IMG/VR virus record: IMGVR_UViG_3300027994_000006
Location: 1-64,000 of that record
Reading direction: 5' to 3' (one strand)
Length of the DNA: 64,000 bases
From: a virus
Lineage: Duplodnaviria; Caudoviricetes
Shown here: one piece after another, positions 17,797 to 63,334 of the stretch
Numbering within the stretch: position 1 is the stretch's first letter
Layout of the letters: the number at the start of each line of letters is the position of its first letter
Notes under the pieces: generated by a model
What the model saw: only the letters and a program-made list of their open reading frames with translations
What the model was told of the DNA's origin: nothing
Databases searched by the model: none
Position numbers and translations under genes: made by a program

Positions 17797-18987
17797 ATGG
17801 CCTCTATTAAATTTCTTCTACAAAGCTCTTCGAATCCAGCGAATATCTATGTGAGGCTAATTGACGGAAGAAAAGTTGATATAAAAACAAAAACAAACTT
17901 TATTATAAATCCAGACGAGTGGAGCGCTATCAAACAACGTCCAAAAAACTTAAAGAACGAAGCATCTAAAAACTTAGATTCCAACCTGCAGAATCTCAGA
18001 ACAAATCTACTCAATTATTACAATAAAAATAATGCCGGGGAGATAAATTTAGCTTGGTTGAAAAACTTCATAAATCCAGAAGATAATAAAATTCCCAAAG
18101 ATTTAGTCTCCTATTTTGAGTTTTATCTAACCGAGAGGGGGAATGAAATTAGCCATAGAACATCATTAAAGATAAAAGTTGTCCAGAATAAATTAAAGGA
18201 GATCGAAAAACAGAAGCGTAAAACTTTTCTGCTTAAAGATATAAACTTAAATTTTAAGAAAGAATTCGAGAAGTACAATAAAGATAATGGGTATTCTCCA
18301 AATACTATTCTCAGTAATCTGAAGGAAATAAAATCCATTTGTTATCACGCTAGGAAAAAAGGACTACAAATTAATTCTGAAGTTGAAGATTTTAAAACAT
18401 CTCAGAAGAAAGCAGAAAGTATATATCTAACATTTAACGAATTGGATAAACTAGAAAAACTCGATCTAAAGGTTGATGACTGGAAAGACGCTCGTGATTG
18501 GCTCTTGATTAGCTGCTACACAGCTCAAAGAGTATCCGATTTTATGCGTTTCCAAAAAGAAATGATACGTGTTGAAGGGAATGTAAAGTTGATCGAATTC
18601 GAACAAAAGAAAACAGGGAAAATGATGACACTTCCATTGCATAAAAAGGTAATCGAGGTTTTGAATAAAAGGAATGGAGAATTTCCACCAAAAATAGCTG
18701 AGCAAAAATATAATGAATTAATCAGGTCGGTTTGTAGAAAGGCGAAAATTGAAGATGTAATCTATAGTGGAAAGATGATAGAGAAAAGAAAAGTGATGGG
18801 TAACTATCCAAAATATGAACTGGTTTCTTCTCATATTGGCAGGAGATCTTTTGCGAGCAACTTTTATGGTAAAATACCAACTTCTTTACTAATAAATGCA
18901 ACTGGACATAGCACGGAGCAAATGTTCCTGGTTTATATAGGCAAAAGCAATTCTGATAAGGCTATACAGTTGAGTGAATACTTCTAA
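17797..18987 (+). CDS. int: Tyrosine integrase (Bacteroidota type with arm-binding and SAM-like domains)
   Basis: CYTAQRVSD (R), SSHIGRRSFA (HxxR), TGHST and Y motifs; promoter box TATCTTTG at 17775-17782. Confidence 0.95.
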   Translation: MASIKFLLQSSSNPANIYVRLIDGRKVDIKTKTNFIINPDEWSAIKQRPKNLKNEASKNLDSNLQNLRTNLLNYYNKNNAGEINLAWLKNFINPEDNKIPKDLVSYFEFYLTERGNEISHRTSLKIKVVQNKLKEIEKQKRKTFLLKDINLNFKKEFEKYNKDNGYSPNTILSNLKEIKSICYHARKKGLQINSEVEDFKTSQKKAESIYLTFNELDKLEKLDLKVDDWKDARDWLLISCYTAQRVSDFMRFQKEMIRVEGNVKLIEFEQKKTGKMMTLPLHKKVIEVLNKRNGEFPPKIAEQKYNELIRSVCRKAKIEDVIYSGKMIEKRKVMGNYPKYELVSSHIGRRSFASNFYGKIPTSLLINATGHSTEQMFLVYIGKSNSDKAIQLSEYF

Positions 18988-45147: not shown

Positions 45148-45151
45148 TTTT

Positions 45152-45191
45152 CAAAGATATATATGAACGCACACAAAAACCTTTTTGCTAA
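45152..45191 (-). promoter_or_regulatory. Late-promoter motif (tail operon), facing the plus-strand copy
   Basis: TTAGCAAAA-N23-TATCTTTG. Confidence 0.7.
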
Positions 45192-45573: not shown

Positions 45574-45577
45574 TAGG

Positions 45578-46150
45578 ATGGCAAAGCAAAGGAAAACTTT
45601 TGTGGAAAAAGGTAGGGAAGAGATGCACGACTTCGTAGTAAAGGCGATTGATGATCTTCTTGCTGTACTTGATTCTAAAATTGAATTTCCTACTGATAAG
45701 GATGGGTATGTATTAGAGCATAAAATGTTTCAAGTCGTCCAATCCAGAGAGCAGGTTTATAAATCGGCTTGCGAACTAATAGACGAAATAAATCTGGATG
45801 ATAAAAAAGACCAAGCTTATAAAAATAAAATCATTAAAGGTCTTGAAACAACTTGGCACGAATTGACAAAAGTTGCTACGAGAAACATTGGAGAATATAA
45901 AGCCAATTCATTAGAAGAAATAATAATGGATAGGGATTTAACAGATGAAGAAAAAAGACAGAAAGCCAGAGAAAGCGTTACTGACGACAGACTAACATCA
46001 GTTTCAAAAGCCAAGGCCTTATCAATAAGAGTTTCTTACCAAATCCTTGACAGAATATCACTTTTAGAAGATCCGGATGGTGCAAACGATGAGATCCTTA
46101 AAAACTCATTAGCACCAAATATAGCAGAGAAGTATGTTGAAAACAATTGA
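45578..46150 (+). CDS. Putative terminase small subunit
   Basis: Helical 190-aa protein overlapping the large terminase start; inferred from position. Confidence 0.5.
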   Translation: MAKQRKTFVEKGREEMHDFVVKAIDDLLAVLDSKIEFPTDKDGYVLEHKMFQVVQSREQVYKSACELIDEINLDDKKDQAYKNKIIKGLETTWHELTKVATRNIGEYKANSLEEIIMDRDLTDEEKRQKARESVTDDRLTSVSKAKALSIRVSYQILDRISLLEDPDGANDEILKNSLAPNIAEKYVENN

Positions 46151-48401: not shown

Positions 48402-48408
48402 AACATAA

Positions 48409-50799
48409 ATGATAACACAATACGGCATATACAAATTCCCAAATGAAATGGTATCAAACGAAAAGAAGAAATCCTTTGAGTTTGGTAGAGATTTCGGCTC
48501 AGCTATTTGGAGTGAGTGGGAAGGAAAATTCTATTCAAGAAATCTTAAACACAACCTTTGGCGTAAGTATGCAATTGGTGAACAGGATATTACCAGAATA
48601 GAGAAAAACATTCAGAGGAAATATATCAAAAAAGAATTTCTGCACTACGATAAAGAAGACCGTATTAAAGATTTAGCTTGGTTGCTACGTGAGTTTAAAA
48701 ACTCGGTGGATATGAAAGAATTCATTCCTGTTGTGAAGGCTACAGATCCGTTTGCAATGGAAATCAAGGACAATCGTAAGAATGAGAAAATGAAGTTGTT
48801 CTATGCAAAAGATTTTTTAGAACAAGCAGCTCAACTTAATGGCGGACAATCGCCTATACCATTAGATACAATTCCGCAATCCAAAGAACAAGTTGACTTG
48901 GAAGAGGAAACAGCAAAACCTTTGAGAGTAGAACGTGGAGAATTGAAAGCATTGGATTTTTTCTGCCTGACGAATCGCTTTGATTTAATTCAGGACGAAG
49001 TTTTTGATGATGCTTTGGAAGTCAACAAATTAATTTCAAAAGTTACCACCGACCCGATTGAAGGAATCAAGATGAAAAGAATCCATCCTGATAATTATGT
49101 AGGCGACGAGAAGAATGCAGACAAATATTTTACTAAAGCTACCTATCACGGAGATGTTGACCATATCACAGTTGGAACTTTTAGAAACATAGCTTCAGAA
49201 TCAGGATTAAAATTTACAGAAGATCAAATCAGAAAAATAGCCGGATGTTCAACTCTGGAAGAACTGAATGACAACATCATTATCAAAGTTATTTTTTACG
49301 AATTCAAAACATATTTCTTAGACGTTACAAAAAAGAAAGTCAACAGAAATACAAAGGCCATTTCTTTAATTGATAGAAGTAATGATATTGGCACTGAAAA
49401 AGAATATAATCCAAAACAATCATCCGATAAATCTGAAAAAATAGAAGAGAATTACGATGTATGGTTTGAAGGAATTATGGTTCTTGATGCAGACAGAACA
49501 ATTATTCGCCATAGATTAATTAAAAATCAGCCAGCATACAAGGGAAAAACACTTTCTTCCTATGTAGTTTGCAAACCAAGAAAGGTTGGAATCGTAGAAG
49601 AATTAATTGCAAGGATTGATTCTATGACCGAACTCCGATTGAGATTGCTACATTTCAGAAATACACTTCGTGGAAATACACTCAATATCTATCAGGATGA
49701 GATTACCGATGTTCATTTGAATGGTAAGGATAAACCGCCTTTGTCTCCGGAAGAAGTATTATCATTTCTATTGACATTAGGATTCAACTTCATCAAGACA
49801 AGGGATAGTGAAGGCGAAGAAATTCCTGGTGGAAAAACAAATTTCTCAGAGACACCAGAAAATATTCCTCGTACATTAATGCAGTTGGGAAATGAATATC
49901 TGCAGGAGGAACAAAAACTTTACAGAGCTTTTGGCGCATATCAATATAACCAAGTAAAGTCAGATCCGAAAACAAATGGAATCAACGAACCTTACAAGCT
50001 AACGGATAATACAGCAATGCGTGATTACACAAATTGTTTATTCGAATGGTCAAGACAAAACCTTCAGGTCATTAGTGCAAGACTGAATGATGCGATTGAG
50101 TTCCCTTATGTAAAACAAATGCTTGAGGATAATTTAGGCGACGAGGACGTAAATGTTATGTCTCAATATATGAAGGACAGAAAGCAACATTACTTTGGTT
50201 TATATCTGGATTATATTCCGTCTCAGCAAGAAAGATTGGATTTTGCATTGGGTGTGAAACAGCACGTTCAACAAGGACAATTGACGGTGGCTGACGAATG
50301 GGATCTGATGATGATTCGAAATCCAAATCAGGCAAGAGCAACATTAGCATTACGATTAGAGGCCAATAGAAAACGAAACGAGCAGTACGAATTAGATAAA
50401 GCACAACAATCGCAAAATGCTAATATCGAAGCATCAAATGTAGCTTACCAAAACAAAGCGAAACTGAGCGAACAGGAACATCAGCAGAAATTGCAGTTGG
50501 AGCAGTATAAATTCAACAACGAATCTTTTTTATTACAAAAAGATGGTGAGATTAAAATCAACACTACCAATATTACAGCCAATGCAAAAGTGACAGGCGA
50601 CCAATTCCGTCAGCAGTTTGAAGCTGATCTCACAAGATTCAAGAAGGAACAGGACGCTAAAAATAGACAGGATGCGATTAATCTGTCGTACGATAAACAA
50701 GAAAAACTTTACAAATTAAAGCAAGGTGAGATTGATTCTATCGATCAAGAATCGCCTACACAACCAATAGACCTATCAACTTTACAAAACACAATATAA
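48409..50799 (+). CDS. Portal protein
   Basis: 796 aa directly after terL; FP...VS.EKK.S.EFG N-terminus and long Gln-rich helical C-terminal barrel typical of podovirus portals. Confidence 0.75.
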   Translation: MITQYGIYKFPNEMVSNEKKKSFEFGRDFGSAIWSEWEGKFYSRNLKHNLWRKYAIGEQDITRIEKNIQRKYIKKEFLHYDKEDRIKDLAWLLREFKNSVDMKEFIPVVKATDPFAMEIKDNRKNEKMKLFYAKDFLEQAAQLNGGQSPIPLDTIPQSKEQVDLEEETAKPLRVERGELKALDFFCLTNRFDLIQDEVFDDALEVNKLISKVTTDPIEGIKMKRIHPDNYVGDEKNADKYFTKATYHGDVDHITVGTFRNIASESGLKFTEDQIRKIAGCSTLEELNDNIIIKVIFYEFKTYFLDVTKKKVNRNTKAISLIDRSNDIGTEKEYNPKQSSDKSEKIEENYDVWFEGIMVLDADRTIIRHRLIKNQPAYKGKTLSSYVVCKPRKVGIVEELIARIDSMTELRLRLLHFRNTLRGNTLNIYQDEITDVHLNGKDKPPLSPEEVLSFLLTLGFNFIKTRDSEGEEIPGGKTNFSETPENIPRTLMQLGNEYLQEEQKLYRAFGAYQYNQVKSDPKTNGINEPYKLTDNTAMRDYTNCLFEWSRQNLQVISARLNDAIEFPYVKQMLEDNLGDEDVNVMSQYMKDRKQHYFGLYLDYIPSQQERLDFALGVKQHVQQGQLTVADEWDLMMIRNPNQARATLALRLEANRKRNEQYELDKAQQSQNANIEASNVAYQNKAKLSEQEHQQKLQLEQYKFNNESFLLQKDGEIKINTTNITANAKVTGDQFRQQFEADLTRFKKEQDAKNRQDAINLSYDKQEKLYKLKQGEIDSIDQESPTQPIDLSTLQNTI

Positions 50800-50921
50800 T
50801 GAGCAATTTTTTAAACATTAAGGCATTGGCCAATAGAACACAAAAAGGGATTCAGAACCAACTGAAACCCATCATCGTAAAGAAAACAAAATCCGGATGC
50901 AAAACCTGCGGAAATAAGTAG
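50799..50921 (+). CDS. Small basic CxxC protein, 40 aa, missing from the ORF track
   Basis: MSNFLNIKALANRTQKGIQNQLKPIIVKKTKSGCKTCGNK*; TAATG overlap with the portal stop. Confidence 0.55.
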   Translation: MSNFLNIKALANRTQKGIQNQLKPIIVKKTKSGCKTCGNK

Positions 50922-51033
50922 TAACTTTAATAAAAACAAAGCAATATTAAAGTAAACAAAATCGTAATTGGCGACACCGTTATCGGAGATATTTTCGCAA
51001 TATAATACAAACAACTTCAACGGAAATTATTTA

Positions 51034-51058
51034 AAGGACAGCTTATTTAGTTGTCCTT
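51034..51058. terminator. Bidirectional terminator between convergent operons
   Basis: AAGGACAGCT-TATTT-AGTTGTCCTT with flanking A/T tracts. Confidence 0.7.
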
Positions 51059-51081
51059 ATTTTATATTTTAGCTATTACTT

Positions 51082-51396
51082 TTAAGTCCAATGTGGCAAT
51101 GAGATTAATTTGATTTCCGGAACTGAGATTTCTGGATATAGTTCAGTGAATTTATCAATGATTTCCTGCTTGTTATAATTCAAACTGATCTCGCTTGATT
51201 CTTCGCTGCCTAATTCCTTAATGAAACCAAAGTATGTATATTCCCCGTTCATACCATCAGTTAAAAACCTCAATTCATCTTCTTTTCTTGAGTAACTATC
51301 ATATTTGTCATAATAATCACTTTCCCAAAAATCAGTTGTGAATTCACTATCTAATTTAAATCCGTAGATTAAATAATTCGTTACTTGTGTTGACAT
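51082..51396 (-). CDS. Hypothetical phage protein
   Basis: ORF track. Confidence 0.6.
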   Translation of the reverse strand: MSTQVTNYLIYGFKLDSEFTTDFWESDYYDKYDSYSRKEDELRFLTDGMNGEYTYFGFIKELGSEESSEISLNYNKQEIIDKFTELYPEISVPEIKLISLPHWT

Positions 51397-51408
51397 GATA
51401 TTTTGATT

Positions 51409-51537
51409 TTAATTTTTACTTATTACTTTGGTCTTCGCCTCTTCCAAGGACTTTAATTTGATCTCAAAGGCATTATCTCCGTAGACTAAGTTGTCGGTTG
51501 TGGTCCAGTTGGCTTTTATTTGGTCTATTGCGCTCAT
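51409..51537 (-). CDS. Small hypothetical protein, 42 aa, missing from the ORF track
   Basis: MSAIDQIKANWTTTDNLVYGDNAFEIKLKSLEEAKTKVISKN*; abuts the upstream stop. Confidence 0.45.
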   Translation of the reverse strand: MSAIDQIKANWTTTDNLVYGDNAFEIKLKSLEEAKTKVISKN

Positions 51538-51765
51538 TTATTCAGCAATTTTTAAATCTATTTTCTCCAATTCTTTTTCAGAATAGAATTTTCGCTTCTT
51601 GTAATTATTGAATTTTGCAACGATTCTATCTCTTTGGGTTCTGCTTAAATTAGATTCCTTTCGCTGGATTCTGATATAGTCTCCGATAATATTTCCCGAT
51701 TCTACTTTGTCACGATGCTCCAGAAGTTCTTTAGGCATCATTGATTTTATTAAGTGTTCTATCAT
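51538..51765 (-). CDS. Hypothetical phage protein
   Basis: ORF track. Confidence 0.55.
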   Translation of the reverse strand: MIEHLIKSMMPKELLEHRDKVESGNIIGDYIRIQRKESNLSRTQRDRIVAKFNNYKKRKFYSEKELEKIDLKIAE

Positions 51766-51848
51766 CGTCTTTTATTTTTAGGTTTAATAAATTTAGGTTT
51801 GTTATTCTTTCTTCCGTTGGGTAGAGTGATGTATTTCTTCATAGGGAA

Positions 51849-52772
51849 TTATGAAAAGCAGAGGCAAGGAAATAAATCCAAAGTCTCTTGTTTAAGATAA
51901 ATTTTAGCTGACTTCCAAAATATATTTGATGGGATATGCTCGTTCGCTGGAATGCCTGCTCTCTTCATTTTGTGAAATTTAATCTCCAAATCTTTAAGGA
52001 ATTCTTTACCGAAGCTATATCCAATTCTCTGTTCTGAAAGTTTAGCTCTTTCAAACACTTCGTAATCGTGGACATAGACACAATACCAATGTTGCTTTCC
52101 TGCTTTCAAACACCCTGTACAATTGGCGTGCTTCCATACTGTATAAGTATTTGGTGGTTCAATTCCTATTTCTTTTGTAGAAACGATGGTTCGTTCAAAA
52201 CAATCCCGATTTTCATAATTTTCAACTTTTGCAATTGCTTTTGGGTTTTTGTTTCCTGCTTTTTGAAGATAATTCAAAAGACTTTCAAATCTACCATCAC
52301 CCCACAACGCAATTGGATAATCCGAAGCAACACCGCTATCGTTGAGAATTGTCTTTCTTCTATCAACACGCTCCAATTCTTCTGCATCAAAGCCGTAATA
52401 GACACATATAAATTCCTTTTCGAGCGTTTCTAAGTATTCGTAGAAAGGTTCTGTTTTTAATCGGCTTGTGCAAAGTATCTGGCGTCCGTAAGGATTAACG
52501 AAAGTTCCTGCTTCTTCACAAACTTCAAACTGATTTGGAATCAACTTTTCATCTTTAATACCTTTAATATTTGCATAAGTAATACTTAACCCTAAATACT
52601 CAGCAACTTCAATTTTGAATCTTTTAATATCCACGTTTTCATATCGGGGATTAATATTATGATTCAACAATACTACATTTTCATTACCATATCTTCTAAC
52701 TGTTTCAATAGCGACAATTGCTGACGAGTGACCGCCAGAATAACAGATGATATGTTTAATTTGAGATTTCAT
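51849..52772 (-). CDS. PAPS-reductase-like PP-loop (adenine nucleotide alpha hydrolase) protein with Cys cluster
   Basis: ICYSGGHSSA PP-loop; CTSRLKTEP, HANCTGCLKAG and C-terminal CLC. Confidence 0.75.
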   Translation of the reverse strand: MKSQIKHIICYSGGHSSAIVAIETVRRYGNENVVLLNHNINPRYENVDIKRFKIEVAEYLGLSITYANIKGIKDEKLIPNQFEVCEEAGTFVNPYGRQILCTSRLKTEPFYEYLETLEKEFICVYYGFDAEELERVDRRKTILNDSGVASDYPIALWGDGRFESLLNYLQKAGNKNPKAIAKVENYENRDCFERTIVSTKEIGIEPPNTYTVWKHANCTGCLKAGKQHWYCVYVHDYEVFERAKLSEQRIGYSFGKEFLKDLEIKFHKMKRAGIPANEHIPSNIFWKSAKIYLKQETLDLFPCLCFS

Positions 52773-52792
52773 AGTATTTATTTTTTAAGCAA

Positions 52793-53425
52793 TTAAATTG
52801 TTTGAGGAATATTCCGGGATGATTTTCTCGGTTTCATTTCCCAATTGTAGTCCAAGTTATAATTGTGAGAATTGCCTTCTAAATCGTATTTGTCTTTGCT
52901 GAAAGATAATTTTGCAAACGTCCGCATTCCTTCAAAAGCATAGTCCTCATTTACTTTGTGAATATTGAATTGATTCAGCCTTAGAATAGATTTATTCGGA
53001 AACATCACTTCATTTTCAAGCAATGCCTGCTCTTCCATTTCCTTCAAAGAAAGACTATCATCCAAAGTCAAATCAAAATCCGTTGAATTAAAAATAGTTG
53101 GATTATTGTCGCTCCAGATATAATTAATATCATCTGTTAAAAATCCATCTGAATGATAACCTGGTCTATTGAATTGCTGTTGCTTATTCTGATACTGTCT
53201 TTTAACTGTAAGATAAATATAGGATTCTATAAACTCCGGAACGCCAAAGTTGTTTTTAAAATCGCTCATACAATGAACAATAAAAGGGTAGAAGACTCCT
53301 AATCTTGTCTCAACATCAAAGATTTTTTGACCCTTTAATTTGATTGGAAGATATTGGTAGAACATCATTTCCTTACAATCTATTTCTAATCTTCTAACAA
53401 CTTTTGGTAATTCTCCGTAGTTCAT
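52793..53425 (-). CDS. Putative 2OG-Fe(II) dioxygenase
   Basis: RPGYHSDG (HxD), distal NIH and RTF fit the HxD...H...R pattern. Confidence 0.55.
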   Translation of the reverse strand: MNYGELPKVVRRLEIDCKEMMFYQYLPIKLKGQKIFDVETRLGVFYPFIVHCMSDFKNNFGVPEFIESYIYLTVKRQYQNKQQQFNRPGYHSDGFLTDDINYIWSDNNPTIFNSTDFDLTLDDSLSLKEMEEQALLENEVMFPNKSILRLNQFNIHKVNEDYAFEGMRTFAKLSFSKDKYDLEGNSHNYNLDYNWEMKPRKSSRNIPQTI

Positions 53426-53435
53426 AAATTAAATT

Positions 53436-53831
53436 TTAAAATGGCAACGATCCATCATCTTCATCCTCAGCAAAAACATTCTTACTATTAAATGCCTCAT
53501 CCGCACTTGCAGTCGGTACGCTCTTTCCAGATGTTTCAGCTCCATCGCCAACCTTCTCAATTCTCCAGGCCACAATGCTGTTGAAATATTTTACTTCTTT
53601 GGTCGGGCTTTCCCAACGTCTCCCGTTAATATTAAAGTGAACCGTCACTTCGTCGCCTACCTTATAATGATCTAAAAGGTCTATCTTATCCTTTACAAAT
53701 TCAATGTTTGGATATTGTGGATATTGTCCACTTGTCTCAAGTATTAAAGATCGCTTCTCAAATCCGCTGTTGAAAGTTTCTAACGCAAGTATCTCGTGTA
53801 CTTTTCCGGTTATTTTGTTGCTGTCGCTCAT
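53436..53831 (-). CDS. DUF3127 family (SSB-like OB-fold) protein
   Basis: ITGKV...FEKRSLILET..QYPQ..IEF.KDKI...GDEVTVHFNINGRRW; acidic C-terminal tail DDGSLPF. Confidence 0.85.
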   Translation of the reverse strand: MSDSNKITGKVHEILALETFNSGFEKRSLILETSGQYPQYPNIEFVKDKIDLLDHYKVGDEVTVHFNINGRRWESPTKEVKYFNSIVAWRIEKVGDGAETSGKSVPTASADEAFNSKNVFAEDEDDGSLPF

Positions 53832-53866
53832 TTTATTTTTGTTTTATGTAGGCGATTCCTACGTTG

Positions 53867-54601
53867 TTATTTTTTATCTATGATTACTATTTTTCCTCCT
53901 ACCATAGTCCCACTTTGTTTAAAGCTTCCCTTCTCAATATCCAGAACTTTAGCATCTACTTTTTGTAAGAAAATTTTAAAATCGACTTGCTTTTTCTGAT
54001 TGCCATTTACCCAAGATTCAGAAGTGATACAAACCAATCTTCCGCCTTCTCTCAAAACATCGTACATAAATAATAAATGATCAATGTCTTGATTTTTTGT
54101 AAATGGAGGATTAGCAATGATTTTATCATACATTTTATCCTGATGCTGAAGAAAATCTTCTCCCAGAAATTTGAATTTAAGATCAGATCTTTTTAAAATT
54201 ATAGCATTTACATCCATTAACTCATAACAATCTGGAATAGATTTACAAGCTTTGTTTATAGCCTTAATAATAGCACCCTGTCCTGCACTCGGTTCCAATA
54301 TATCGTCTGAACTTTTTAAATCTGCATACATTACCAATTCATCAGCTAGATCATCTGGAGTTCCAAAAAACTGAAACTCTTTTTTAAGATTTCTTTTCTC
54401 CCCGTTAGCAATTTGGCGGAGTAAGTCTTTCGGATCAGTTTGAAATACAAATCCTTGTACCTTTCCACCTTTCCATTTTCCTCCAATTAGCTCAAGTTTA
54501 TTTTTAACTTCCGTATATTCATTTCTACCTAATTGAACATCAGGTAATTTCACGACAGTGTTTTCAACTGTACAACTTTTTAATACATCTTCTGTTGTCA
54601 T
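53867..54601 (-). CDS. SAM-dependent N6-adenine DNA methyltransferase
   Basis: ILEPSAGQGAI (motif I) and IIANPPF (motif IV). Confidence 0.85.
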   Translation of the reverse strand: MTTEDVLKSCTVENTVVKLPDVQLGRNEYTEVKNKLELIGGKWKGGKVQGFVFQTDPKDLLRQIANGEKRNLKKEFQFFGTPDDLADELVMYADLKSSDDILEPSAGQGAIIKAINKACKSIPDCYELMDVNAIILKRSDLKFKFLGEDFLQHQDKMYDKIIANPPFTKNQDIDHLLFMYDVLREGGRLVCITSESWVNGNQKKQVDFKIFLQKVDAKVLDIEKGSFKQSGTMVGGKIVIIDKK

Positions 54602-54648
54602 ATATTTATTTTTAATGTTACTTTATCACTTTTTTAATACCATACTAA

Positions 54649-55434
54649 TCAACGGTAAGCCGCCGTGACCATAGACGGTTTATTTTCATAGATATAATTC
54701 TTATATAAGAAACAATGATTACTTATAGCTTCGGCTTTCTTTAAACCCAAATAATGGGAAAAACTAACTGCGTAAGGATAAATTCTCGCCATTTCATTAA
54801 AAACTTTGATAAGACCTCGTTCTTTTAGGAACTTTTTGTAGGCCGTTATCGTGTTTTTAGATTTTCTTTCTAAAAGTTCACCCATTCTTTTTATAGAAAG
54901 CAACATTTGACTATTGTAATCCATCTTACCGCCCTTCTTTAAATAAAGTTTCAGCCTTTTGAAATCTTGCAATGTGCAATCTCCTTTTGGTTGATTCTTT
55001 TGTTGATTAATGTAATTGTAGCGTTTAATGCGTTCAATAGTTTTTTCCTGTTGTACTATGTTGGAAAGAACCGGGATCGTGTTTAAAAAATATTTTATGT
55101 CAGAATACTCTGATATGTTTCTGGGAACGAAAACAAAATTGGACTCGTCAGGGCGCATTTTAGCGTTTGTGATAAGTCGCATTTCATTAGCATAGAATTC
55201 TATTAGTTTATTTTCTTTAAGGATTCTAACGTGTTTTTGTAAGGCTGTGAGGCTGATATTATATTTATCAGCAATCGCCTTTATCATCTTGGTCTTTTCT
55301 CCTGAACGGAAATAATAATTTTTGCCCGTATGAGATTTAAAAAGGAAAACAAACATAGCAAGAGAGGGAAGCCACTTTTCTCTGTGTGCCTTTGCATATA
55401 CCTTCCCGTTAATCCTTACTATGATATTTTCCAA
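54649..55434 (-). CDS. Basic winged-helix protein (two HTH-like segments), function unknown
   Basis: IADKYNISLTALQKHVRILKENKLI and MGELLERKSKNTITAYKKFLKERGLI. Confidence 0.55.
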   Translation of the reverse strand: MENIIVRINGKVYAKAHREKWLPSLAMFVFLFKSHTGKNYYFRSGEKTKMIKAIADKYNISLTALQKHVRILKENKLIEFYANEMRLITNAKMRPDESNFVFVPRNISEYSDIKYFLNTIPVLSNIVQQEKTIERIKRYNYINQQKNQPKGDCTLQDFKRLKLYLKKGGKMDYNSQMLLSIKRMGELLERKSKNTITAYKKFLKERGLIKVFNEMARIYPYAVSFSHYLGLKKAEAISNHCFLYKNYIYENKPSMVTAAYR

Positions 55435-55472
55435 GAAATAGCCTTTACCCTTAATTATCTAATAGATCATTT

Positions 55473-55573
55473 GTGAAGATGAATATTTTGAAGAACCGGG
55501 GCAAAGGCAATATATATTTTTGTGCTTTGCAGATATTAAAAATGAGTTCTTCAAAATATTTCTTCATCTTCAC
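55473..55573 (-). promoter_or_regulatory. Long-hairpin 5' leader (candidate cis-regulatory RNA)
   Basis: GTGAAGATG-AATATTTTGAAGAAC pairs with GTTCTTCAAAATATT-(TCTT)-CATCTTCAC; inner GCAAAG/CTTTGC stem; TATCTTTG box on minus at 55578-55585. Confidence 0.55.
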
Positions 55574-55688
55574 GATTCAAAGATAAACATAATTGTTTAA
55601 TATCCGTGCATATTTCGAAAAATTGTTTTAACTTTGTTGAAAAGTATTTCAAGAGAGATACTATTTAGATAAATCAAACAAAAAAGAT

Positions 55689-55970
55689 ATGACACGACCA
55701 AGAATTCCTACAGCATTACAAGACGATGTAAAAATTTTCTGCAAAAAGAAAAAAGAAGAACGGTACACGCTGCAATACATTGGAAACATTATTGGAAAAG
55801 ACCATTCTACTGTAATAAGCCATATTAGAAAGTATGATGACTACTACGAAAAGTACAAAGATTTCCGTGAAAAAGCTGATGCATTCTCAGAAGATAAATT
55901 TCTGGAAGATTTTCAGGAATATAAAGTTTCCTTGGCCAACAAAATCTTAAATCAAATCCATTATCTATGA
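55689..55970 (+). CDS. DnaA C-terminal-like HTH protein
   Basis: YTLQYIGNIIGKDHSTVISHIRK resembles the DnaA domain IV signature; promoter box TAACTTTG at 55629-55636. Confidence 0.7.
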   Translation: MTRPRIPTALQDDVKIFCKKKKEERYTLQYIGNIIGKDHSTVISHIRKYDDYYEKYKDFREKADAFSEDKFLEDFQEYKVSLANKILNQIHYL

Positions 55971-56176
55971 AAAAGATAATCACCTTATTTATCCTTATGG
56001 TAGTATTTGCGCTGTTGCAAATGGTGTTTCTCACATCATTGTATTATTTAGGCGAGAAAGATGTCTTTAATTTTGAGACAATTGTCTATCCGCTTTTAGG
56101 ACTATGTATTTTTCTAACAGCCCTGATTTATGTGTTTGAACCGCTGTTATTTTTTTTTGTCAAATATTTAAAGTAG
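55967..56176 (+). CDS. Two-TM membrane protein
   Basis: Two hydrophobic segments. Confidence 0.6.
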   Translation: MKKIITLFILMVVFALLQMVFLTSLYYLGEKDVFNFETIVYPLLGLCIFLTALIYVFEPLLFFFVKYLK

Positions 56177-56179
56177 GGG

Positions 56180-56497
56180 ATGATAGCAATTCCAGTAGAT
56201 CAGCCGTCGCCTACACAATACAGAACTTTAATGTATAACTATGGTTTGCTTACAGTTTTATACATCTTAGAACACTTTGAAGCAATCGAAGACTACGAGG
56301 AATGCGAAATGATAATCCAGGCGATAAGGTCAGAAGAGAAAAGATTGGAGACAACGCTATTCACAAAAGCATCAAAGTAGGCAATAGAAAAAGTTTTGGA
56401 AACTTACCGGAGCTTTGGATTAACCGGAAAATATGCCGTAGCCAATTCTAATGATTACGCAGAAATGTTTATTAAAAAATTAAGAAATACATTATGA
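56180..56497 (+). pseudogene. 106-codon ORF interrupted by one in-frame TAG (56378-56380)
   Basis: The frame continues after TAG as AIEKVLETYRSFGLTGKYAVANSNDYAEMFIKKLRNTL* and ends in an ATGA overlap with the next start at 56494. Confidence 0.65.
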
Positions 56498-56709
56498 AAA
56501 AAAATAAAGTAAAAATTACAAATCTTGATATAGGAGAAATTAAAGAAACTATTACCTATAAAAAATTATTCTTTCAGTTTAATGATAGTGAACCAGAAGA
56601 ATTTTTGAACGGTCTATTTGAAAAATTTCAAATTACCCTAAAAAAAGATGGAGATGAATTTCAAATTGAATCTAAAGATGGAAATAAATTCAAATTATTT
56701 TTAAAATAA
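56494..56709 (+). CDS. Hypothetical phage protein
   Basis: ORF track. Confidence 0.55.
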   Translation: MKKNKVKITNLDIGEIKETITYKKLFFQFNDSEPEEFLNGLFEKFQITLKKDGDEFQIESKDGNKFKLFLK

Positions 56710-56725
56710 TTATATCTTAAAACCC

Positions 56726-56733
56726 TATATTTG
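56726..56733 (+). promoter_or_regulatory. Bacteroidota -7 promoter box of aspS
   Basis: TATATTTG 25 nt upstream of the aspS ATG. Confidence 0.6.
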
Positions 56734-56758
56734 CAACCGCAATTTCTAAACAACCAAA

Positions 56759-58510
56759 ATGTTCCGTACACACACAAACGGCGAACTAACGCTGAAAAAT
56801 CTGAATGAAAAAGTAACACTTTCCGGCTGGGTACAAACCATCCGTGACAAAGGTTTTATGATTTGGATAGATTTGCGAGACCGTTACGGCATCACCCAAT
56901 TAGTTTTAGACGAAGACAGAACTTCCAAAGAACTTTTGGAAACTGCTAAGAAATTAGGTCGTGAGTTTGTCATCAAAGTTGAAGGAACTGTAATCGAACG
57001 TACTTCCAAAAACCCAAAGATTGCAACCGGAGACGTAGAAATCTTAGTTGAAACGCTAATTATTTTAAATGAATCTCAACTTCCACCATTCACCATCGAA
57101 GACGAAACCGACGGTGGCGAAGAATTGAGAATGAAATACAGATACCTCGACATCAGAAGAAATCCGGTAAAAGACAAATTGATTTTCCGTCACAAAATGG
57201 CGCAAAAGGTACGAAACTATCTTTCCGAAGAAGGTTTCATCGAGGTTGAAACGCCGGTTCTAATCAAATCTACTCCGGAAGGTGCGAGAGATTTCGTAGT
57301 TCCAAGCAGAATGAATCCGGGACAATTTTACGCACTTCCGCAATCTCCTCAAACTTTCAAACAATTGTTAATGGTTGGCGGAATGGACAGATATTTTCAA
57401 ATCGTGAAATGTTTCCGTGATGAGGATTTAAGAGCCGACAGACAACCGGAATTCACGCAAATCGATTGCGAAATGGCGTTCGTAGAGCAGGAAGATATTA
57501 TGAATGTTTTCGAAGGAATGACAAAAGTTCTTTTGAAAGACATCACAGGAAACGAATTCCAGGATTTCCAAAGAATGACTTTCGCCGATGCGATGCAAAA
57601 ATACGGAAACGACAAGCCGGATATCCGTTTCGGAATGGAATTCCACGAGTTAAATGATTTAACGAAAGGAAAAGATTTAAAAATATTCGACGAGGCTGAA
57701 TTGGTTGTCGGAATCAATGTTGAAGGGATCGCAGATTACACCAGAAAACAAATCGACGAATTGGTGGATTGGGTAAAACGCCCACAAATAGGCGCAACTG
57801 GATTGGTTTGGATTAAATTCCAAAATGATGGCGTTGTAACTTCGTCTGTCAATAAATTTTATTCTGAAGAAGATTTGAAAAAAATCACTGAAGAATTCGG
57901 AGCAAAAGCTGGAGATTTAATTTTCGTAATGTCCGGAAACGCAGATAAAGTGAGAACCCAACTTTCCGCTTTGAGAATGGAACTCGGAAACCGTCTTGGA
58001 TTGAGAAAAGGAAACGAATTTGCACCACTTTGGGTTGTAGATTTCCCGTTGCTGGAATTTGATGAAGAATCCGGAAGATACCACGCAATGCACCACCCTT
58101 TCACGTCTCCGAAAACCGAAGATTTCCATTTATTAGAAACGGACCCAGGTAAAGCAAGAGCCAACGCATACGATCTGGTTTTGAACGGAAACGAAATTGG
58201 TGGCGGTTCTATCAGAATTTTTGACAGAGATCTGCAGTCGAAAATGTTTGACCTTTTAGGATTCTCCAAAGAAGATGCAGAAGCACAGTTCGGATTCTTG
58301 ATGAATGCCTTCAAATATGGTGCTCCACCTCACGGAGGATTGGCTTTCGGATTTGACAGATTGGTCGCCATCCTTGATGGAAATGAAGTGATTAGAGATT
58401 ACATCGCTTTCCCGAAAAACAATTCCGGACGAGATGTGATGATTGATGCGCCTGCACCGATTCATCAGGAACAGTTGACGGAACTGGAACTTAAATTGGA
58501 TTTAAAATAA
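56759..58510 (+). CDS. aspS: Aspartate--tRNA ligase, full length, bacterial type
   Basis: OB-fold anticodon-binding domain, [43 protein letters not shown] insertion, [33 protein letters not shown]. Confidence 0.98.
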
Positions 58511-58537
58511 AAAGAGCGACACCTAAGCATCGCCCTA
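58506..58537 (-). terminator. Intrinsic terminator of the capsid operon, abutting the aspS stop
   Basis: Minus strand AGGGCGATGC-TTAG-GTGTCGCTCT (with G-U pairs) followed by TTTTATTTT. Confidence 0.65.
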
Positions 58538-58562
58538 AAAAAGAAAACCACACGACAACCGT

Positions 58563-59255
58563 TTACTGTTGTTTTATTTGTTCCTCCTGCTTTAGTTGTG
58601 TGGATAGTTCCAAAGCAAATTGATCGTCCAAATTAACCCCGAAGTATGCCATCAGTTCTATCAATACCGCCTGCATCATACTCGGGTGTAAATCGATGTC
58701 CTGAAAGTCACTTGCGCTAATATCATAAACTTCCTCTTCAAAGAAAATCTTTGTCGTGAGTTTTGGCACTTTGGCCTTTCTAAAATACACCAATGATACT
58801 TTACTCGCTGAAGGACTTAGTTTCAGTTCGTTGTCATTAAGAGTATAGATAGGTAGGCAACTCGTAGGTCGCAGTTCTGGTAATCTGGATAGTTTATTAT
58901 AAACAAGTAGATCTGTTTTCTCAGCTTCTGCCTTATCCGTAAAAACAGAATTAGCAAATAGAAAATCAGGAATCGCCTGAATAACATCAGCCTTGCCAGC
59001 CGTTAAGGTAACATCAGCTTCTGAAATATAATATTCCATAGCCTGCTTCATATACATCGACTCATCGCCATAGTTTGGGCTGTCCATCCAACGCATCTTT
59101 CGGAGATTCAACTTCCGGAAGTTTGGGAACAGGCTCATTTGCACATTACTTACCACAGGCGCAAGAATACTATTCTTCTCATCAGTAGAAAGTTTTCCCA
59201 TCTGTTTGTGGTTTGTGATGTCATCTATGGCGTTACTTAGAGCGACGATCATCAT
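58563..59255 (-). CDS. Putative head-tail connector/ring protein
   Basis: Downstream of the capsid genes; YFRKAKVPK...QDIDLHP...LMAYFGV pattern; inferred from position. Confidence 0.5.
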   Translation of the reverse strand: MMIVALSNAIDDITNHKQMGKLSTDEKNSILAPVVSNVQMSLFPNFRKLNLRKMRWMDSPNYGDESMYMKQAMEYYISEADVTLTAGKADVIQAIPDFLFANSVFTDKAEAEKTDLLVYNKLSRLPELRPTSCLPIYTLNDNELKLSPSASKVSLVYFRKAKVPKLTTKIFFEEEVYDISASDFQDIDLHPSMMQAVLIELMAYFGVNLDDQFALELSTQLKQEEQIKQQ

Positions 59256-60004
59256 TACTTAGCTGGTGTTGCAGTTGCAGGATCTTCTACTTTTTTATGA
59301 GTAGCTTTTTCCTTCATCATTGTTTGAATTTGTTTTCTGGTTTCACGGCCTTCTGTTTCCTTATAGAAATCTACCATTGCCTGTACTGCAGTTGAATCTC
59401 TTGGGATAGAAACGATCTTTACCTCATTATGTCCCCAACGTACTTCCGTAGCATTATCCTCGATGATTCCCTGCGCAATAGCAAGACCGATTTCGAATTT
59501 TTGATTCTTAGTTTTATCGGTCAAAAGTTCTTTCACTTCATTAGGAAATTTCTGAGTGTGACCCAAAACATCCAATTTGATTCCGGCATTATCACCTTCC
59601 TTCGCTTTAATTACAGCGTCTCTACCGAATAGGTTCCAAGCTAATGACAGTAATTCAGGTTGTGTAAGGTCGGTAACTTCCAACATCACTTTCAAGTCTT
59701 TTGTAGCCTCTTCAGCTTTAGCTTCATTCTCAGCAACCGGATCATAGATTTTGATTTTAGTTCCGAATCCAGGTTTAGACTCAATAAATTTTTGCCATGT
59801 AACATTATCTGTAGAAAGTAATTGTGAACCTACAAAGATTCTTGTTTCAGTTACTTTTCTGGTTCCTTGTTTTTTTAGTTCGAGTTCTGTGTCGCCTTCT
59901 ACCAATCGATAGGTTTTATAGCCGTCATCAGTTTTTACTTCGTGTCTTGGACTCAGATAAGTTCTTTGGTAGCCCTTATCAAATAAATAGGTTTTTAAAG
60001 CCAT
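59255..60004 (-). CDS. Virion-associated protein following the major capsid gene
   Basis: ORF track; position only. Confidence 0.5.
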   Translation of the reverse strand: MALKTYLFDKGYQRTYLSPRHEVKTDDGYKTYRLVEGDTELELKKQGTRKVTETRIFVGSQLLSTDNVTWQKFIESKPGFGTKIKIYDPVAENEAKAEEATKDLKVMLEVTDLTQPELLSLAWNLFGRDAVIKAKEGDNAGIKLDVLGHTQKFPNEVKELLTDKTKNQKFEIGLAIAQGIIEDNATEVRWGHNEVKIVSIPRDSTAVQAMVDFYKETEGRETRKQIQTMMKEKATHKKVEDPATATPAK

Positions 60005-60043
60005 TGTATTAAATTGTTTATGTGGTTTGTTTTGATTAAAGAA

Positions 60044-60074
60044 ATAAAGCGGAGTGTTTTAATCTCCGCTTTAT
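60044..60074 (-). terminator. Terminator after the major capsid gene
   Basis: ATAAAGCGGAG-N9-CTCCGCTTTAT perfect 11-bp IR followed by TTCTTT on minus. Confidence 0.75.
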
Positions 60075-60083
60075 GTTATTGTT

Positions 60084-61451
60084 TTAAGCGTTTACGCCTA
60101 TGATGAATTTATCTGCACCGAAAACAGCAACTGACATTTTGTTTTTGTAAGTCACTTTTACTTTTCCGCAGTTATAATCATTCTCATTAGAATCTCTTTT
60201 GAACTTGTACGGATCATTTGCGTTACCGAACCAGATCAAAGTTACTCTACCTAATGTTCTTGCTTTTCCGTTTAGCGTTACATTTACTTTATCAGCTGGT
60301 GTGATAAGGAAGTTGTAAGCTTTACCAAGTTTCTCAGATCCTCTACCGGATAATCCTTTCCACTCTCTGAACATCAGTTTTACTCCGAAGATGTCAACGC
60401 CTTTATATCCAAGATACATAAGGTCGTTTTGATGATTTTCAAAAGGCTTCCATTCAATTCCTGCGTTGTCTCTCTGGATCAACATAAGTTTTGTATACTG
60501 TGAAGGCGATGCATCAAGATACGCTTCGTAGATGTCCTGATCTTTCAAATACTGAGTTACAGCAATTAGATCCTCAAGAGTTTCCAGTTCACCTTCAAAC
60601 TTCACTGCTTTGTCATCAATGAATTCAAAGATTCCTCTCATATTCTGCGTGATGTCACCACCTACAGTTCTCTTTTCCCAAGCCAAAGAAGTATCAGACT
60701 TCTTAGCCAATCTTTTCATCGCATCATTTAGTTGTACTGATGGTGTAAAAGTGTACTCTCCGTAGTTTTTCTCAGGGAAAGCGTCCCATCCGCCTTCTGC
60801 AACCATAGTTTCCTCGCAGAACTCGTGTCCGTCGCCTAAACTTTTAAAGCCGTTCTCGTAAGTTGGAGAATAACCTTTCCATCCTAGAACAGAAGGACAT
60901 TCGCAATGATCAAGATTATCACCCAAGAAGATGATGTCAAGATTGGTTGTTGCAATCGTCCAGGCAGCACCTGCTTCTCTGTTTACGACAGTGATGGTTT
61001 TACCGTCTGAACTGATTGCTGTTACTTCCCCGATTTCTCTTTTACCTGTATTATCTACAGCTAAGATTCTCTCGCCTAAATTAGTGAAGAACTGCGCATT
61101 TTCCGGACGGCACAAATCAATATCATACGTGTCTGTTGGAATTGCAGAGGTATTGATTGTGAAGTTATTTCCGGTTCTTGAAACAAGATTTTGTCCAACG
61201 ATTTGGATCACATTTGTTTCAGATGGTTTTTCTTTCCAAGAAACCTGATCGGCTGCTACTGTGATTTCATTTCCAGAAGCCATAAGGAATCCGGCGTATG
61301 TATCGTAAGCTACTTCTTTAGCTTCTACTGTACCTAAGTGTTCAGGTGCTACAGCACAAGAAATTTCCATCTCTGTTACTAATGCTCTTCTTCCCTTTGG
61401 AAGCGGTTGTTGAAACCTTGCGTAATCTACTTGTGGTATTACTATTGCCAT
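60084..61451 (-). CDS. Major capsid protein (HK97 fold inferred)
   Basis: 455 aa after an acidic scaffold gene; high-expression codon bias; followed by a strong terminator; TQNMRGIFEFI motif. Confidence 0.75.
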   Translation of the reverse strand: MAIVIPQVDYARFQQPLPKGRRALVTEMEISCAVAPEHLGTVEAKEVAYDTYAGFLMASGNEITVAADQVSWKEKPSETNVIQIVGQNLVSRTGNNFTINTSAIPTDTYDIDLCRPENAQFFTNLGERILAVDNTGKREIGEVTAISSDGKTITVVNREAGAAWTIATTNLDIIFLGDNLDHCECPSVLGWKGYSPTYENGFKSLGDGHEFCEETMVAEGGWDAFPEKNYGEYTFTPSVQLNDAMKRLAKKSDTSLAWEKRTVGGDITQNMRGIFEFIDDKAVKFEGELETLEDLIAVTQYLKDQDIYEAYLDASPSQYTKLMLIQRDNAGIEWKPFENHQNDLMYLGYKGVDIFGVKLMFREWKGLSGRGSEKLGKAYNFLITPADKVNVTLNGKARTLGRVTLIWFGNANDPYKFKRDSNENDYNCGKVKVTYKNKMSVAVFGADKFIIGVNA

Positions 61452-61478
61452 TTTTTCTTTGTGTTTTTTTAGTTAATA

Positions 61479-62573
61479 TTAGTTAAAGGCAGAATTTCTC
61501 CTGTTTTCCAGATCCTTTTTATACGCTTCTGCTGCGCCTGTGGAAGTAGCTTGAACGGTTTGCACAACATCAGGACTTACGTTTCTTCGTAGCTTGTCTC
61601 TTTTCGCTCTGTCATTCAGGACAGCCTGCTCAATGAGGAAGTTGGTCATAGCCTGCGACGTTGGCGCATAGGCTTTTGTGACCGTTTCGATAAAACCCTT
61701 AGCATTTGTAAGCTGGTTTTTTTCGTTGAAGAAACTGTTGATGAGTACGCCCACATCCTCGCTGACGGTTCTTGCGTGCTTTAAATATTCCTCATCAGGA
61801 GTATATTGCACATTCACCGCATCGATACCAAGCTCTTTGTTGCCTTGATACGATAATTCTACAGTCGTTAGTTTCGGTAGTTCCTGATAGACTTGTTCTC
61901 TGTTGAAGGTGACGAGCGTCTGCTGTTGTTCTTGCGCTTGTTGAGCGATTTCCTCGTAAGTAAATCGTTTTTCAACTTGGCTTTCAACGTCAGATGTATT
62001 GGATGTAAATTCTTGAAGGTTTCCATCGTGCCATTTGCTGGCTTTACGAAGTTCACCTGCCATCTTAGCTTTTTGTCTAAGAATCTCCTTTTCATCCAAC
62101 TCGCCAGAAAAATCATCATCGTCATCGCTAACTGCGACCTCCAGTTCGCTCATTGCAAAAGCAATCTCATCTTCATTCATACCTTCTTGTTCAGAATAGT
62201 ACTTATGAAGGAGTTCTTTAGCATCGAGGTCTTTGGCAGGTGTTGTCAGGAACTCAAATTCTTTCCAATCATCTTTTCCGGTCTTCTGTACAAACTCGTT
62301 GTATTTCGCCACTTTTTCAGAAGCGAAAGAATTTGTTTTTTGTTCCGGAACTTCTGTTGGAGTTTCCGTAGCATTTTTATTTGGATTATCTGTTTCTGTT
62401 TCAGGTGTTGCAATTTCTGCAACAGTTGCCGTTGGAGTTTCAGTCGCAGTAGTTTCTGGTTGCGTTTCTGTAGTCTCCGTAATAGGCGTTTCAGTTGGTT
62501 GTTGTGTTTCTTGTGTAGGCGACGCCTGTGAGGGTGCGCCTTCATTCATAAGATTACTTAATGTGTCTCCCAT
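61479..62573 (-). CDS. Capsid scaffolding protein
   Basis: Acidic Thr/Glu/Pro-rich N-terminus and helical body directly upstream of the MCP. Confidence 0.7.
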   Translation of the reverse strand: MGDTLSNLMNEGAPSQASPTQETQQPTETPITETTETQPETTATETPTATVAEIATPETETDNPNKNATETPTEVPEQKTNSFASEKVAKYNEFVQKTGKDDWKEFEFLTTPAKDLDAKELLHKYYSEQEGMNEDEIAFAMSELEVAVSDDDDDFSGELDEKEILRQKAKMAGELRKASKWHDGNLQEFTSNTSDVESQVEKRFTYEEIAQQAQEQQQTLVTFNREQVYQELPKLTTVELSYQGNKELGIDAVNVQYTPDEEYLKHARTVSEDVGVLINSFFNEKNQLTNAKGFIETVTKAYAPTSQAMTNFLIEQAVLNDRAKRDKLRRNVSPDVVQTVQATSTGAAEAYKKDLENRRNSAFN

Positions 62574-62717: not shown

Positions 62718-63089
62718 GTGGTAAGTAAGAAAAGATGTTCTAACGGATGTAACTATCCAAGATTTTCGAAAGCTCTATGCAAAATATGCTGGCAAAAAGA
62801 ATATGGAAAACCCATTAAAAAGATTTCTGCCAACTATCAGAAGATTCTATCGGAGTATTCGCCTATACGGAAGGAGTATTTAGAAGCTCATGCAGAATGT
62901 GAGTTAAAGCTGGAATGCTGTACGAGAGTAGCAACTTGCATACATCACAAGAAGTCAAAACACAGCAAAGAATTATATCTCAATTCAGAGTTCTATATGT
63001 CGAGTTGTGTTCCTTGTAACGGAAGAGTAGAAGAACTTGGAGAAGAGGCGTACCGATTAGGTTTGAAAGTTAGACATAATACAAAATAA
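62718..63089 (+). CDS. HNH-type endonuclease with N-terminal Zn finger
   Basis: CSNGC...CKIC; CELKLECC...CIHHKK...CVPCNGRVE; promoter box TATCTTTG at 62687-62694. Confidence 0.7.
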   Translation: MVSKKRCSNGCNYPRFSKALCKICWQKEYGKPIKKISANYQKILSEYSPIRKEYLEAHAECELKLECCTRVATCIHHKKSKHSKELYLNSEFYMSSCVPCNGRVEELGEEAYRLGLKVRHNTK

Positions 63090-63202
63090 GAGAAGTGGCG
63101 AAATATGAGACGCAGGCCTATATGGCAAAAACAAAGGATGAAGTATAAACATCCCATCTATCCGGATAGATGAATTGCAGGTATCGAATCCTGTCTTCTC
63201 TT
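63089..63202 (+). ncRNA. tRNA-like RNA 1 with non-canonical anticodon region (114 nt)
   Basis: Acceptor AGAGAAG/CTTCTCT; D-arm GCG/CGC; T-arm GCAGG-TATCGAAT-CCTGT; three hairpins between the D and T arms. Confidence 0.7.
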
Positions 63203-63214
63203 TTTAAAATATTT

Positions 63215-63334
63215 GGGAAAGTAGCTCAGAAATAGGTTAGAGCGATTGAACTTAATTGGTTTGGAAAACCAGCATTTAAAAAAGCTATTAAATGTGTCTC
63301 CAGTAGGTCAGCGGTTCTATTCCGTTCTTTTCCA
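63215..63334 (+). ncRNA. tRNA-like RNA 2 with expanded anticodon loop (120 nt)
   Basis: Acceptor GGGAAAG/CTTTTCC; D-arm GCTC/GAGC; variable loop AGGTC; T-arm AGCGG-TTCTATT-CCGTT; about 50 nt with two hairpins in place of the 7-nt anticodon loop. Confidence 0.75.

Follow-up and report, generated by a model that had tools for sequence, protein, structure and literature searches.

A complete host-type aspS gene in a variable slot of a flavobacterial podophage genome

Introduction

Aminoacyl-tRNA synthetases (aaRS) encoded by viruses are usually discussed for giant viruses and for phages with genomes above 200 kb, in which their benefit is hard to separate from that of dozens of translation genes. 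The moron concept of Hendrix and Juhala describes autonomous host-derived cassettes which are located between phage genes. In huge phages, aaRS were found in genomes of >200 kb along with many tRNAs, and the enzymes differ from those of the hosts, to which they are nonetheless related (PMC7162821). Here, we analyze a stretch of viral DNA of 64,000 nucleotides (the window), comprising bases 1–64000 of the 80,897-bp IMG/VR virus record IMGVR_UViG_3300027994_000006, in which aspS, the gene of an aspartyl-tRNA synthetase (AspRS), is found among phage genes. We conclude with good confidence that this gene is real, phage-borne, derived from a host and retained by the phage. Whether the extra or spare AspRS activity helps the phage, during infection or in the lysogen, is a question on which we see the chances as about even.

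Results

The preliminary description of the window had pointed to a complete host-type aspS inside a phage, and this was borne out: the open reading frame (ORF) encodes an intact AspRS of 583 amino acids with the full domain set, and phage genes lie on both sides (Table 1). Residues 1–581 align with the solved AspRS 6wom. The protein comprises the N-terminal OB-fold anticodon-binding domain (PF01336, tRNA_anti-codon, E 3e-13, residues 19–102), the class II (D, K, N) catalytic core (PF00152, tRNA-synt_2, E 5.5e-120, residues 121–554) and, as is typical for bacterial AspRS, the GAD insertion domain (PF02938, E 2.3e-15, residues 314–400). It differs from the nearest chromosomal enzyme at seven positions only (576 of 583 residues identical), and, judged by this identity, the phage enzyme would be expected to aspartylate tRNA-Asp. 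Two substitutions, P271Q (57569–57571, in the conserved FPRMT stretch) and F307L (57677–57679), affect positions at which the 120 nearest cellular AspRS do not vary. The alignment places both of them outside the class II motifs 2 and 3, and Q at position 271 is shared by the AspRS of a distant bacterium (L097). A degenerate pattern for the phage-specific peptide FQRMTFADA, applied to the JGI metagenomes, detected no further phage copy, its hits being one chance match and L097. The GC content of aspS is 0.41 compared to a phage mean of 0.34; the adjoining capsid genes are similar to aspS in this respect.

That aspS is physically located outside the phage genome, and was placed in the record by a chimeric assembly or by host contamination, could be suspected because the record is a metagenome assembly, because the gene is host-like and because three sister-lineage contigs are broken within aspS. 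Nevertheless, we regard this as scarcely credible. Two false joins would be needed at a repeat of 10 bp, which is far below assembler k-mer lengths, and the identical sequence was obtained from three pipelines and two further runs. The exact proteins AspRS and ORF71, the latter encoded directly upstream of the cassette, are on record from JGI, ENA and Logan, and Logan contigs of the runs SRR8536160 (1,099 bp) and SRR8536159 (12,639 bp compared of a 29.9-kb contig), each 100% identical to the window, together cover both junctions. Further, the host's last codon, terminator and neighbors are lost from the phage aspS, and the diverged relative L087 has the same junction. The earlier concern about a chimera, or about host genes flanking aspS, is not borne out, as contigs span both junctions and the flanks consist of phage genes.

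The nearest cellular AspRS, found on an 895-kb contig and in the genomes G254, G260 and G269, share 99% amino acid and 91.7–92.7% nucleotide identity with the phage copy; named relatives are the enzymes of Epilithonimonas xixisoli (97%) and E. tenax (96%). A phylogeny had been recommended in the preliminary description, and in a tree of 132 sequences the phage AspRS falls within the Epilithonimonas clade with a support of 0.97, its terminal branch being ordinary. The chromosomal neighborhood was not found with it: aspS is accompanied by LpxB, Thx and RecQ on the 895-kb contig, and the phage gene has neither Thx upstream nor the 720-aa gene and RecQ downstream. Among the 120 host proteins closest to the phage AspRS, most have 584 aa, and LDLKS, LNLKS or LNLKA are common C-terminal ends, whereas the phage AspRS ends with LDLK and is one residue shorter. 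Lysogens with a second aspS were searched for in 401 Weeksellaceae genomes, almost all of which proved to be single-copy. The few genomes with two copies contain split genes or duplicates in metagenome-assembled genomes (MAGs), and none of these copies adjoins a relative of the phage's large terminase (TerL). One Weeksellaceae genome, G015, has two complete aspS genes (C35:52889–54637 and C5:670–2418), each 88% identical to the query; the pair could be a MAG duplication or include a true second copy.

At the 3′ end, the edge of the cassette is firm. Host genes end with TTTAAAAT-CA-TAA (LDLKS), the phage gene with TTTAAAAT-AA (LDLK), after which phage sequence begins. Similarity to the hosts stops after TTTAAAAT, where these go on with a final Ser or Ala codon, the stop codon and their own GC-rich terminator. 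Both the last codon and the terminator of the host gene are absent from the phage aspS, and its stop codon is located within the T-tract of a phage terminator. Since host similarity ends at this point and the last codon and terminator are lost, a 3′ joint within the 8-nt microhomology TTTAAAAT, which is also the T-tract of the terminator, is plausible, and so is the microhomology-mediated capture suggested earlier. The terminator had been assigned to the capsid operon, and a strong intrinsic terminator is indeed confirmed on the minus strand only: the hairpin 58513–58536 reaches −20.2 kcal/mol there (z −3.0, 0 of 200 shuffles as good) and is weak on the plus strand (z −0.4). The final codons and the stop of aspS are complementary to its T-tract on the minus strand, and the terminator sequence is kept in the relatives L086, L087 and L088. 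With the host terminator gone and the hairpin behind aspS strong on the other strand only, the gene is left without a good terminator of its own. Transcripts of aspS may find their only terminator in another AT-rich hairpin, a weak one with a T-tract (58555–58580, plus strand), which overlaps the stop of the 230-aa virion gene and is kept in relatives.

The left side of the cassette is less sharply defined. Similarity to the nearest hosts spans 56756..58508, and more distant hosts align from approx. 56715. The direct repeat reported earlier was read directly from the sequence, with TTTAAAATAA at 56700–56709 and 58501–58510 and flanking 18-mers identical at 15 of 18 positions. This 10-mer occurs seven times on the plus and once on the minus strand of the 80.9 kb; it forms the end of 3 of 114 ORFs, and among the ends of 113 other ORFs, two agree with that of aspS at ≥15 of 18 positions. 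The chance that the end of the neighboring ORF matches that of aspS is therefore about 1–2%; with regard to the earlier caveat of a chance match, the repeat is suggestive but not decisive. The promoter box proposed for aspS is present as a candidate Bacteroidota-type −7 box, TATATTTG, and host aspS genes have TATCTTTG upstream. However, the box alone is weak evidence of a promoter, since the consensus TAnnTTTG is found 43 times on the plus strand of the record. No second copy of the 20-mer around the box is present in the window, and the 401 Weeksellaceae genomes contain no match to the 31-nt promoter stretch with up to 3 mismatches. The 49 nt before the aspS start codon are approx. 70% identical to the upstream region of aspS in L014, which shares the box, and do not resemble the upstream regions of aspS in the nearest hosts, where the leader is longer. 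Aberrant excision of a prophage was rejected as the route of capture: the integrase gene is approx. 38 kb away on a circle of approx. 81 kb, phage genes are present on both sides of aspS, and no tRNA is found within 6 kb of the host aspS in three host loci. This agrees with the earlier statement that an ordinary imprecise excision does not account for the cassette.

Relatives were found by a protein search with the 230-aa neighbor of aspS (36–88% identity). L087, from another JGI sample (88% amino acid and 84% nucleotide identity in the 230-aa gene), has the same junction of hairpin and aspS 3′ end, and its contig ends inside aspS. In L086 (84% amino acid identity, 81,858 bp) and L088 (76%), the same hairpin is immediately preceded by the stop codon of a small unrelated gene, encoding 80 aa and 131 aa, respectively. 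The empty site which the preliminary description had proposed to look for is thus found in two relatives, and its expectation that removal of the cassette joins the stop of a phage ORF to the terminator has a counterpart in both. Because other small genes are present in L086 and L088, and aspS in L087, the slot 56710..58507 is variable and aspS is found in one sublineage only. Presence and absence at the same site in close relatives, as described for morons, is accordingly observed, with the site filled in the window and L087 and empty in L086 and L088. Two further, more distant relatives, one of them in a Riemerella anatipestifer assembly, have no aspS at the site, and neither have two prophage relatives at the corresponding site. 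No relative was found by megablast of 11 kb against 50,697 phage records or by IMG/VR scans with the single proteins TerL and gp095. In the sister lineage, three contigs (L087, ERZ27251535, SRR350359) stop approx. 150–230 bp into aspS, which suggests an assembly-graph conflict with the host aspS, or phage variation at this position.

Comparison of the phage aspS with its nearest host yielded 126 synonymous and 12 non-synonymous differences (dS 0.46, dN/dS 0.019), while dN/dS between host genes is higher (0.066–0.074). Over 225 nt, the identity between the two phage copies of the window and L087 is 92%, that between these and the best host 88%, and all 18 substitutions between the phage copies are synonymous. 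Flanking phage genes of the window and its sister have a dS of 0.8–1.1, the aspS fragment one of 0.47. Since the phage copies are closest to each other and differ only synonymously, the comparison argues for a single capture before the two phage lineages split, followed by purifying selection.

Genomic context

Both ends of the record (window 1–200; record 80,690–80,897) fall within one 63-bp tandem repeat, which encodes 21-aa repeats; probably, the genome is circular or permuted and the assembly was broken inside the gene of the repeat protein. As both ends lie in the same repeat and the relative L086 has 81,858 bp, we conclude that the phage genome is approx. 81 kb long and nearly complete. 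The completeness of 75% estimated by CheckV appears too low, given the size of this relative. TerL and the 230-aa virion protein to the right of aspS each match the same 87 phage records, i.e., Flavobacterium elemo phages, the Cellulophaga phi38:1/Calle group, Tenacibaculum Gundel and Maribacter Panino. Compared to phi38:1 and Gundel, homologs of the portal, gp093/gp055, gp095, gp096, gp097, gp098 and gp099 are present in the window. The phage is a podophage of the phi38:1/Gundel/elemo flavobacterial group, and its host is a Weeksellaceae bacterium, most likely of Epilithonimonas, a culturable genus of soil and water bacteria.

A temperate lifestyle is plausible because of the integrase gene and of TerL relatives located inside large Weeksellaceae chromosomal contigs (e.g., contig 3 of G329, 402 kb); from these genes, the phage is probably temperate. 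It also encodes RecT-like and exonuclease genes. The earlier wording of a “small temperate phage” has to be changed accordingly: “small” does not apply to a genome of approx. 81 kb, and “temperate” is kept as probable, based on integrase and prophage relatives.

Table 1. Features at and around aspS, with positions in the window.
Feature	Position	Strand	Evidence or remark
Tyrosine integrase-like gene	17797..18987	+	phrog_1, E 2.6e-20; ~38 kb from aspS
Large terminase (TerL)	46134–48401	+	phrog_6681, E 3.5e-90
Portal	48409–50799	+	E 8.5e-34 to phi38:1 portal
Three small co-oriented ORFs (93, 69, 66 aa)	55689..56380	+	Head of the rightward unit ending in aspS
ORF71, orphan small ORF	56494..56709	+	20% GC; ends in left TTTAAAATAA copy
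Inserted cassette	56710..58507	+	Right edge firm; left edge somewhere within 56710–56756
Candidate Bacteroidota-type −7 box TATATTTG	56726..56733	+	25 nt upstream of aspS ATG
aspS, complete bacterial-type AspRS, 583 aa	56759..58510	+	Pfam domains, alignment to 6wom
Right TTTAAAATAA copy, last two aspS codons and stop, 3′ joint	58501..58510	+	
Intrinsic terminator of the capsid-gene operon	58503..58536	−	10-bp stem 58513–58536, T-tract 58503–58512
Virion structural protein, 230 aa	58563..59255	−	phrog_14543, E 2.1e-23; homolog of phi38:1 gp095, Gundel gp058
Rest of capsid module (249-aa, 455-aa, 364-aa genes)	59255..62573	−	Synteny with phi38:1 gp092–094, Gundel gp054–057

TerL and portal are found 6–10 kb to the left of aspS, whose immediate left neighbors are four small orphan ORFs. 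Among the three co-oriented ORFs at the head of the rightward unit, only the region of the 69-aa ORF is kept in L086. ORF71 forms a singleton cluster without a family match and was not seen in the relatives with an empty site; that it adjoined the terminator ancestrally is inferred only. To the right, the minus strand encodes homologs of phi38:1 gp092–gp095 at 62573..58563. By position and weak homology, the 455-aa protein, which matches Gundel gp055 (E 8.8e-17), is the probable major capsid protein and the 364-aa protein the probable scaffold. Of the earlier layout with terminase and portal on the left and scaffold and major capsid protein on the right, the phage genes on both sides stand, while the names scaffold and capsid protein are to be read as assignments by position and weak homology only.

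The homologs of gp095 and gp096 are separated by 13.5 kb (45145–58560), a stretch which contains TerL, portal, a DNA-modification/SSB block, small ORFs and aspS. As the two genes adjoin each other in the isolated phages phi38:1 and Gundel, this is a large module rearrangement. Beyond the capsid genes, the Rfam tRNA model matches 63215–63334 (plus strand) with 36.7 bits (gathering score 29), with an insertion of 52 nt where the anticodon loop belongs; this element was not called by ARAGORN. With A as its discriminator base, in place of the G that Asp identity would call for, it does not resemble a substrate of AspRS.

Discussion

We propose that one phage sublineage acquired the complete aspS of its host by illegitimate recombination. 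The cassette would have been placed in the variable slot, at the far end of the rightward small-gene unit and head-on to the end of the capsid operon, with the 3′ joint formed in the 8 nt TTTAAAAT common to the end of the host aspS and the T-tract of the phage terminator. By this joint, the last codon and the terminator of the host gene would have been removed, and the stop codon of aspS would now be phage sequence. Expression may start from the upstream candidate −7 box or may be due to read-through, and the spare or extra AspRS activity would benefit the phage either during infection or, as a moron, in the lysogen.

A number of observations weigh against this proposal. Aspartate makes up 6.05% of the phage proteome, the same as in a small host sample, and the idea of an increased demand for aspartate was rejected on these grounds. 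In the record, ARAGORN detected no tRNA genes; among the approx. 40 larger ORFs scanned, there was no other translation gene, and a second aaRS was not seen. The substitutions P271Q and F307L at invariant positions could point to a slight relaxation of constraint. Within the phage lineage, the test for selection covers only 74 codons of a very conserved C-terminal region, and the low dN/dS in comparison to the hosts could partly result from a recent capture from an unsampled host. Moreover, the left joint is placed only within 56710–56756, and the 49-bp promoter region may derive from host or phage. Finally, the hairpin being weak on the plus strand, aspS transcripts may run antisense into the capsid genes.

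Some of these points would equally be expected of a neutral passenger, i.e., a gene picked up by accident, useless to the phage and not yet lost. Such a passenger would be nearly identical to the host enzyme, would not be accompanied by a raised aspartate content, tRNAs called by ARAGORN or other translation genes, might lack a proper terminator of its own and could well be found in a slot which, as for transient cargo, is hyper-variable among relatives. We nevertheless hold it to be unlikely: the junction is the same in the sister phage despite a dS of 0.8–1.1 in the flanking genes, the 18 changes in 225 nt between phage fragments are synonymous throughout, and the 1.75-kb ORF is fully open with a dN/dS of 0.019 versus the host. 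In addition, packaging limits make 1.8 kb of useless DNA costly for a phage. A little less probable still is protection against an inhibitor or toxin directed at AspRS, in which the extra copy would titrate or outlast a microcin C-type compound, or a defense disabling the host AspRS, in the lysogen or during infection. Inhibitor resistance is known to arise through a second, mobile copy of an aaRS gene, as in the case of plasmid-borne ileS2 and mupirocin, a candidate promoter is located within the cassette, and the phage enzyme has two specific substitutions at otherwise invariant positions. The target, too, would fit, as microcin C specifically inhibits AspRS (PMC11042736). However, the phage protein is 99% identical to the host enzyme, and since P271Q and F307L lie outside motifs 2 and 3, altered binding of an inhibitor is not indicated.

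Two further explanations appear very improbable to us, and to a similar degree. The 1.75 kb of host-like DNA might serve as a homology arm for recombination with the chromosome at aspS, for integration or gene exchange, mediated by the RecT-like and exonuclease proteins of the phage. A nucleotide identity of 92% with the host copy would allow this, the contigs of the sister lineage break inside aspS, and the lower dS of the aspS fragment (0.47, flanking genes 0.8–1.1) makes exchange possible; but the phage has its own integrase, its copies are closer to each other than to those of hosts, and a homology arm needs no intact ORF under purifying selection. Alternatively, AspRS might be kept for a use apart from bulk translation, either for a phage reaction depending on Asp-tRNA, e.g., DNA hypermodification by the nearby block of modification genes (51849–54601), or for acting on tRNA-like RNAs at 63089–63334. 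For the former, there is the example of Mom, which uses Gly-tRNA for DNA modification (PMC13219725); the latter would be disfavored by the discriminator base of the tRNA-like element. Compared to these alternatives, we prefer a captured host aspS which is retained for additional AspRS activity. As a single aaRS close to the host enzyme is found here, and sister phages exist with and without aspS, the locus represents a clean natural experiment on the worth of one viral aaRS, which is measurable as burst size, lysogen fitness and tolerance of AspRS inhibitors.

Comparison with known systems

Full-length matches to AspRS were detected by tblastn in 16 of the 50,697 phage records. The one clear case among them is the Microcystis phage MaAM05 (274 kb) with an annotated aspS, whose product is 48% identical to the AspRS described here. 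Other annotated matches are 254-kb Acinetobacter “phage” contigs which also carry lysU, and the remaining records are unannotated short contigs or metagenomic “Bacteriophage sp.” entries. No annotated, complete genome of an isolated phage <200 kb is found among the 16 records, in line with the earlier remark that aaRS are unusual in phages of this size, and our literature search yielded no report of aspS in a phage of such mid size. Two IMG/VR contigs (L002 and L003) encoding an AspRS of 63–67% identity were rejected as phage-borne cases, as their aspS genes, with GH35, pseudouridine synthase, SprB and PhoH as neighbors, belong to the host flanks of proviruses. On L002 (12914–16333), genes of a microvirus-type replication protein and an F capsid protein adjoin the host genes for pseudouridine synthase, AspRS and GH35, with an integrase-like gene nearby; this element looks like an integrated member of the Microviridae in a Bacteroidota genome.

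The phage shares TerL, portal and the structural proteins gp092–gp099 with phi38:1 (Pervagoviridae) and Gundel_1 (Pachyviridae) at 21–38% amino acid identity, and its genome is similar in size to theirs (72–79 kb). It differs from both in the distance between gp095 and gp096 and in aspS, which is not annotated in the regions inspected of either phage; neither phage is among the full-length tblastn matches. Compared to the chromosomal AspRS of Epilithonimonas and Chryseobacterium, domain order and length are the same, except for the missing C-terminal residue, P271Q and F307L. With jumbo phages and giant viruses, the locus has in common that a full-length aaRS derived from the host phylum is part of a viral genome. 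However, those genomes exceed 200 kb and contain up to 15 aaRS and many tRNAs, and an expanded translation set of this kind is not present here, with one aaRS and no ARAGORN tRNA in 80.9 kb. [quoted passage not shown] Like a moron, aspS is a single additional gene which is flanked by two phage transcription units and which close relatives lack at this site, with a promoter-like box in front and a GC content above the phage mean; unlike a moron, it has no terminator of its own and encodes an essential housekeeping enzyme, where the typical cargo would be a conversion or defense gene. Thus, the locus belongs to a known class, that of phage-borne aaRS or morons, and does not define a new type of system. 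With its unusually legible joints, it would be a well-resolved example of how a phage captures an essential host gene by means of microhomology.

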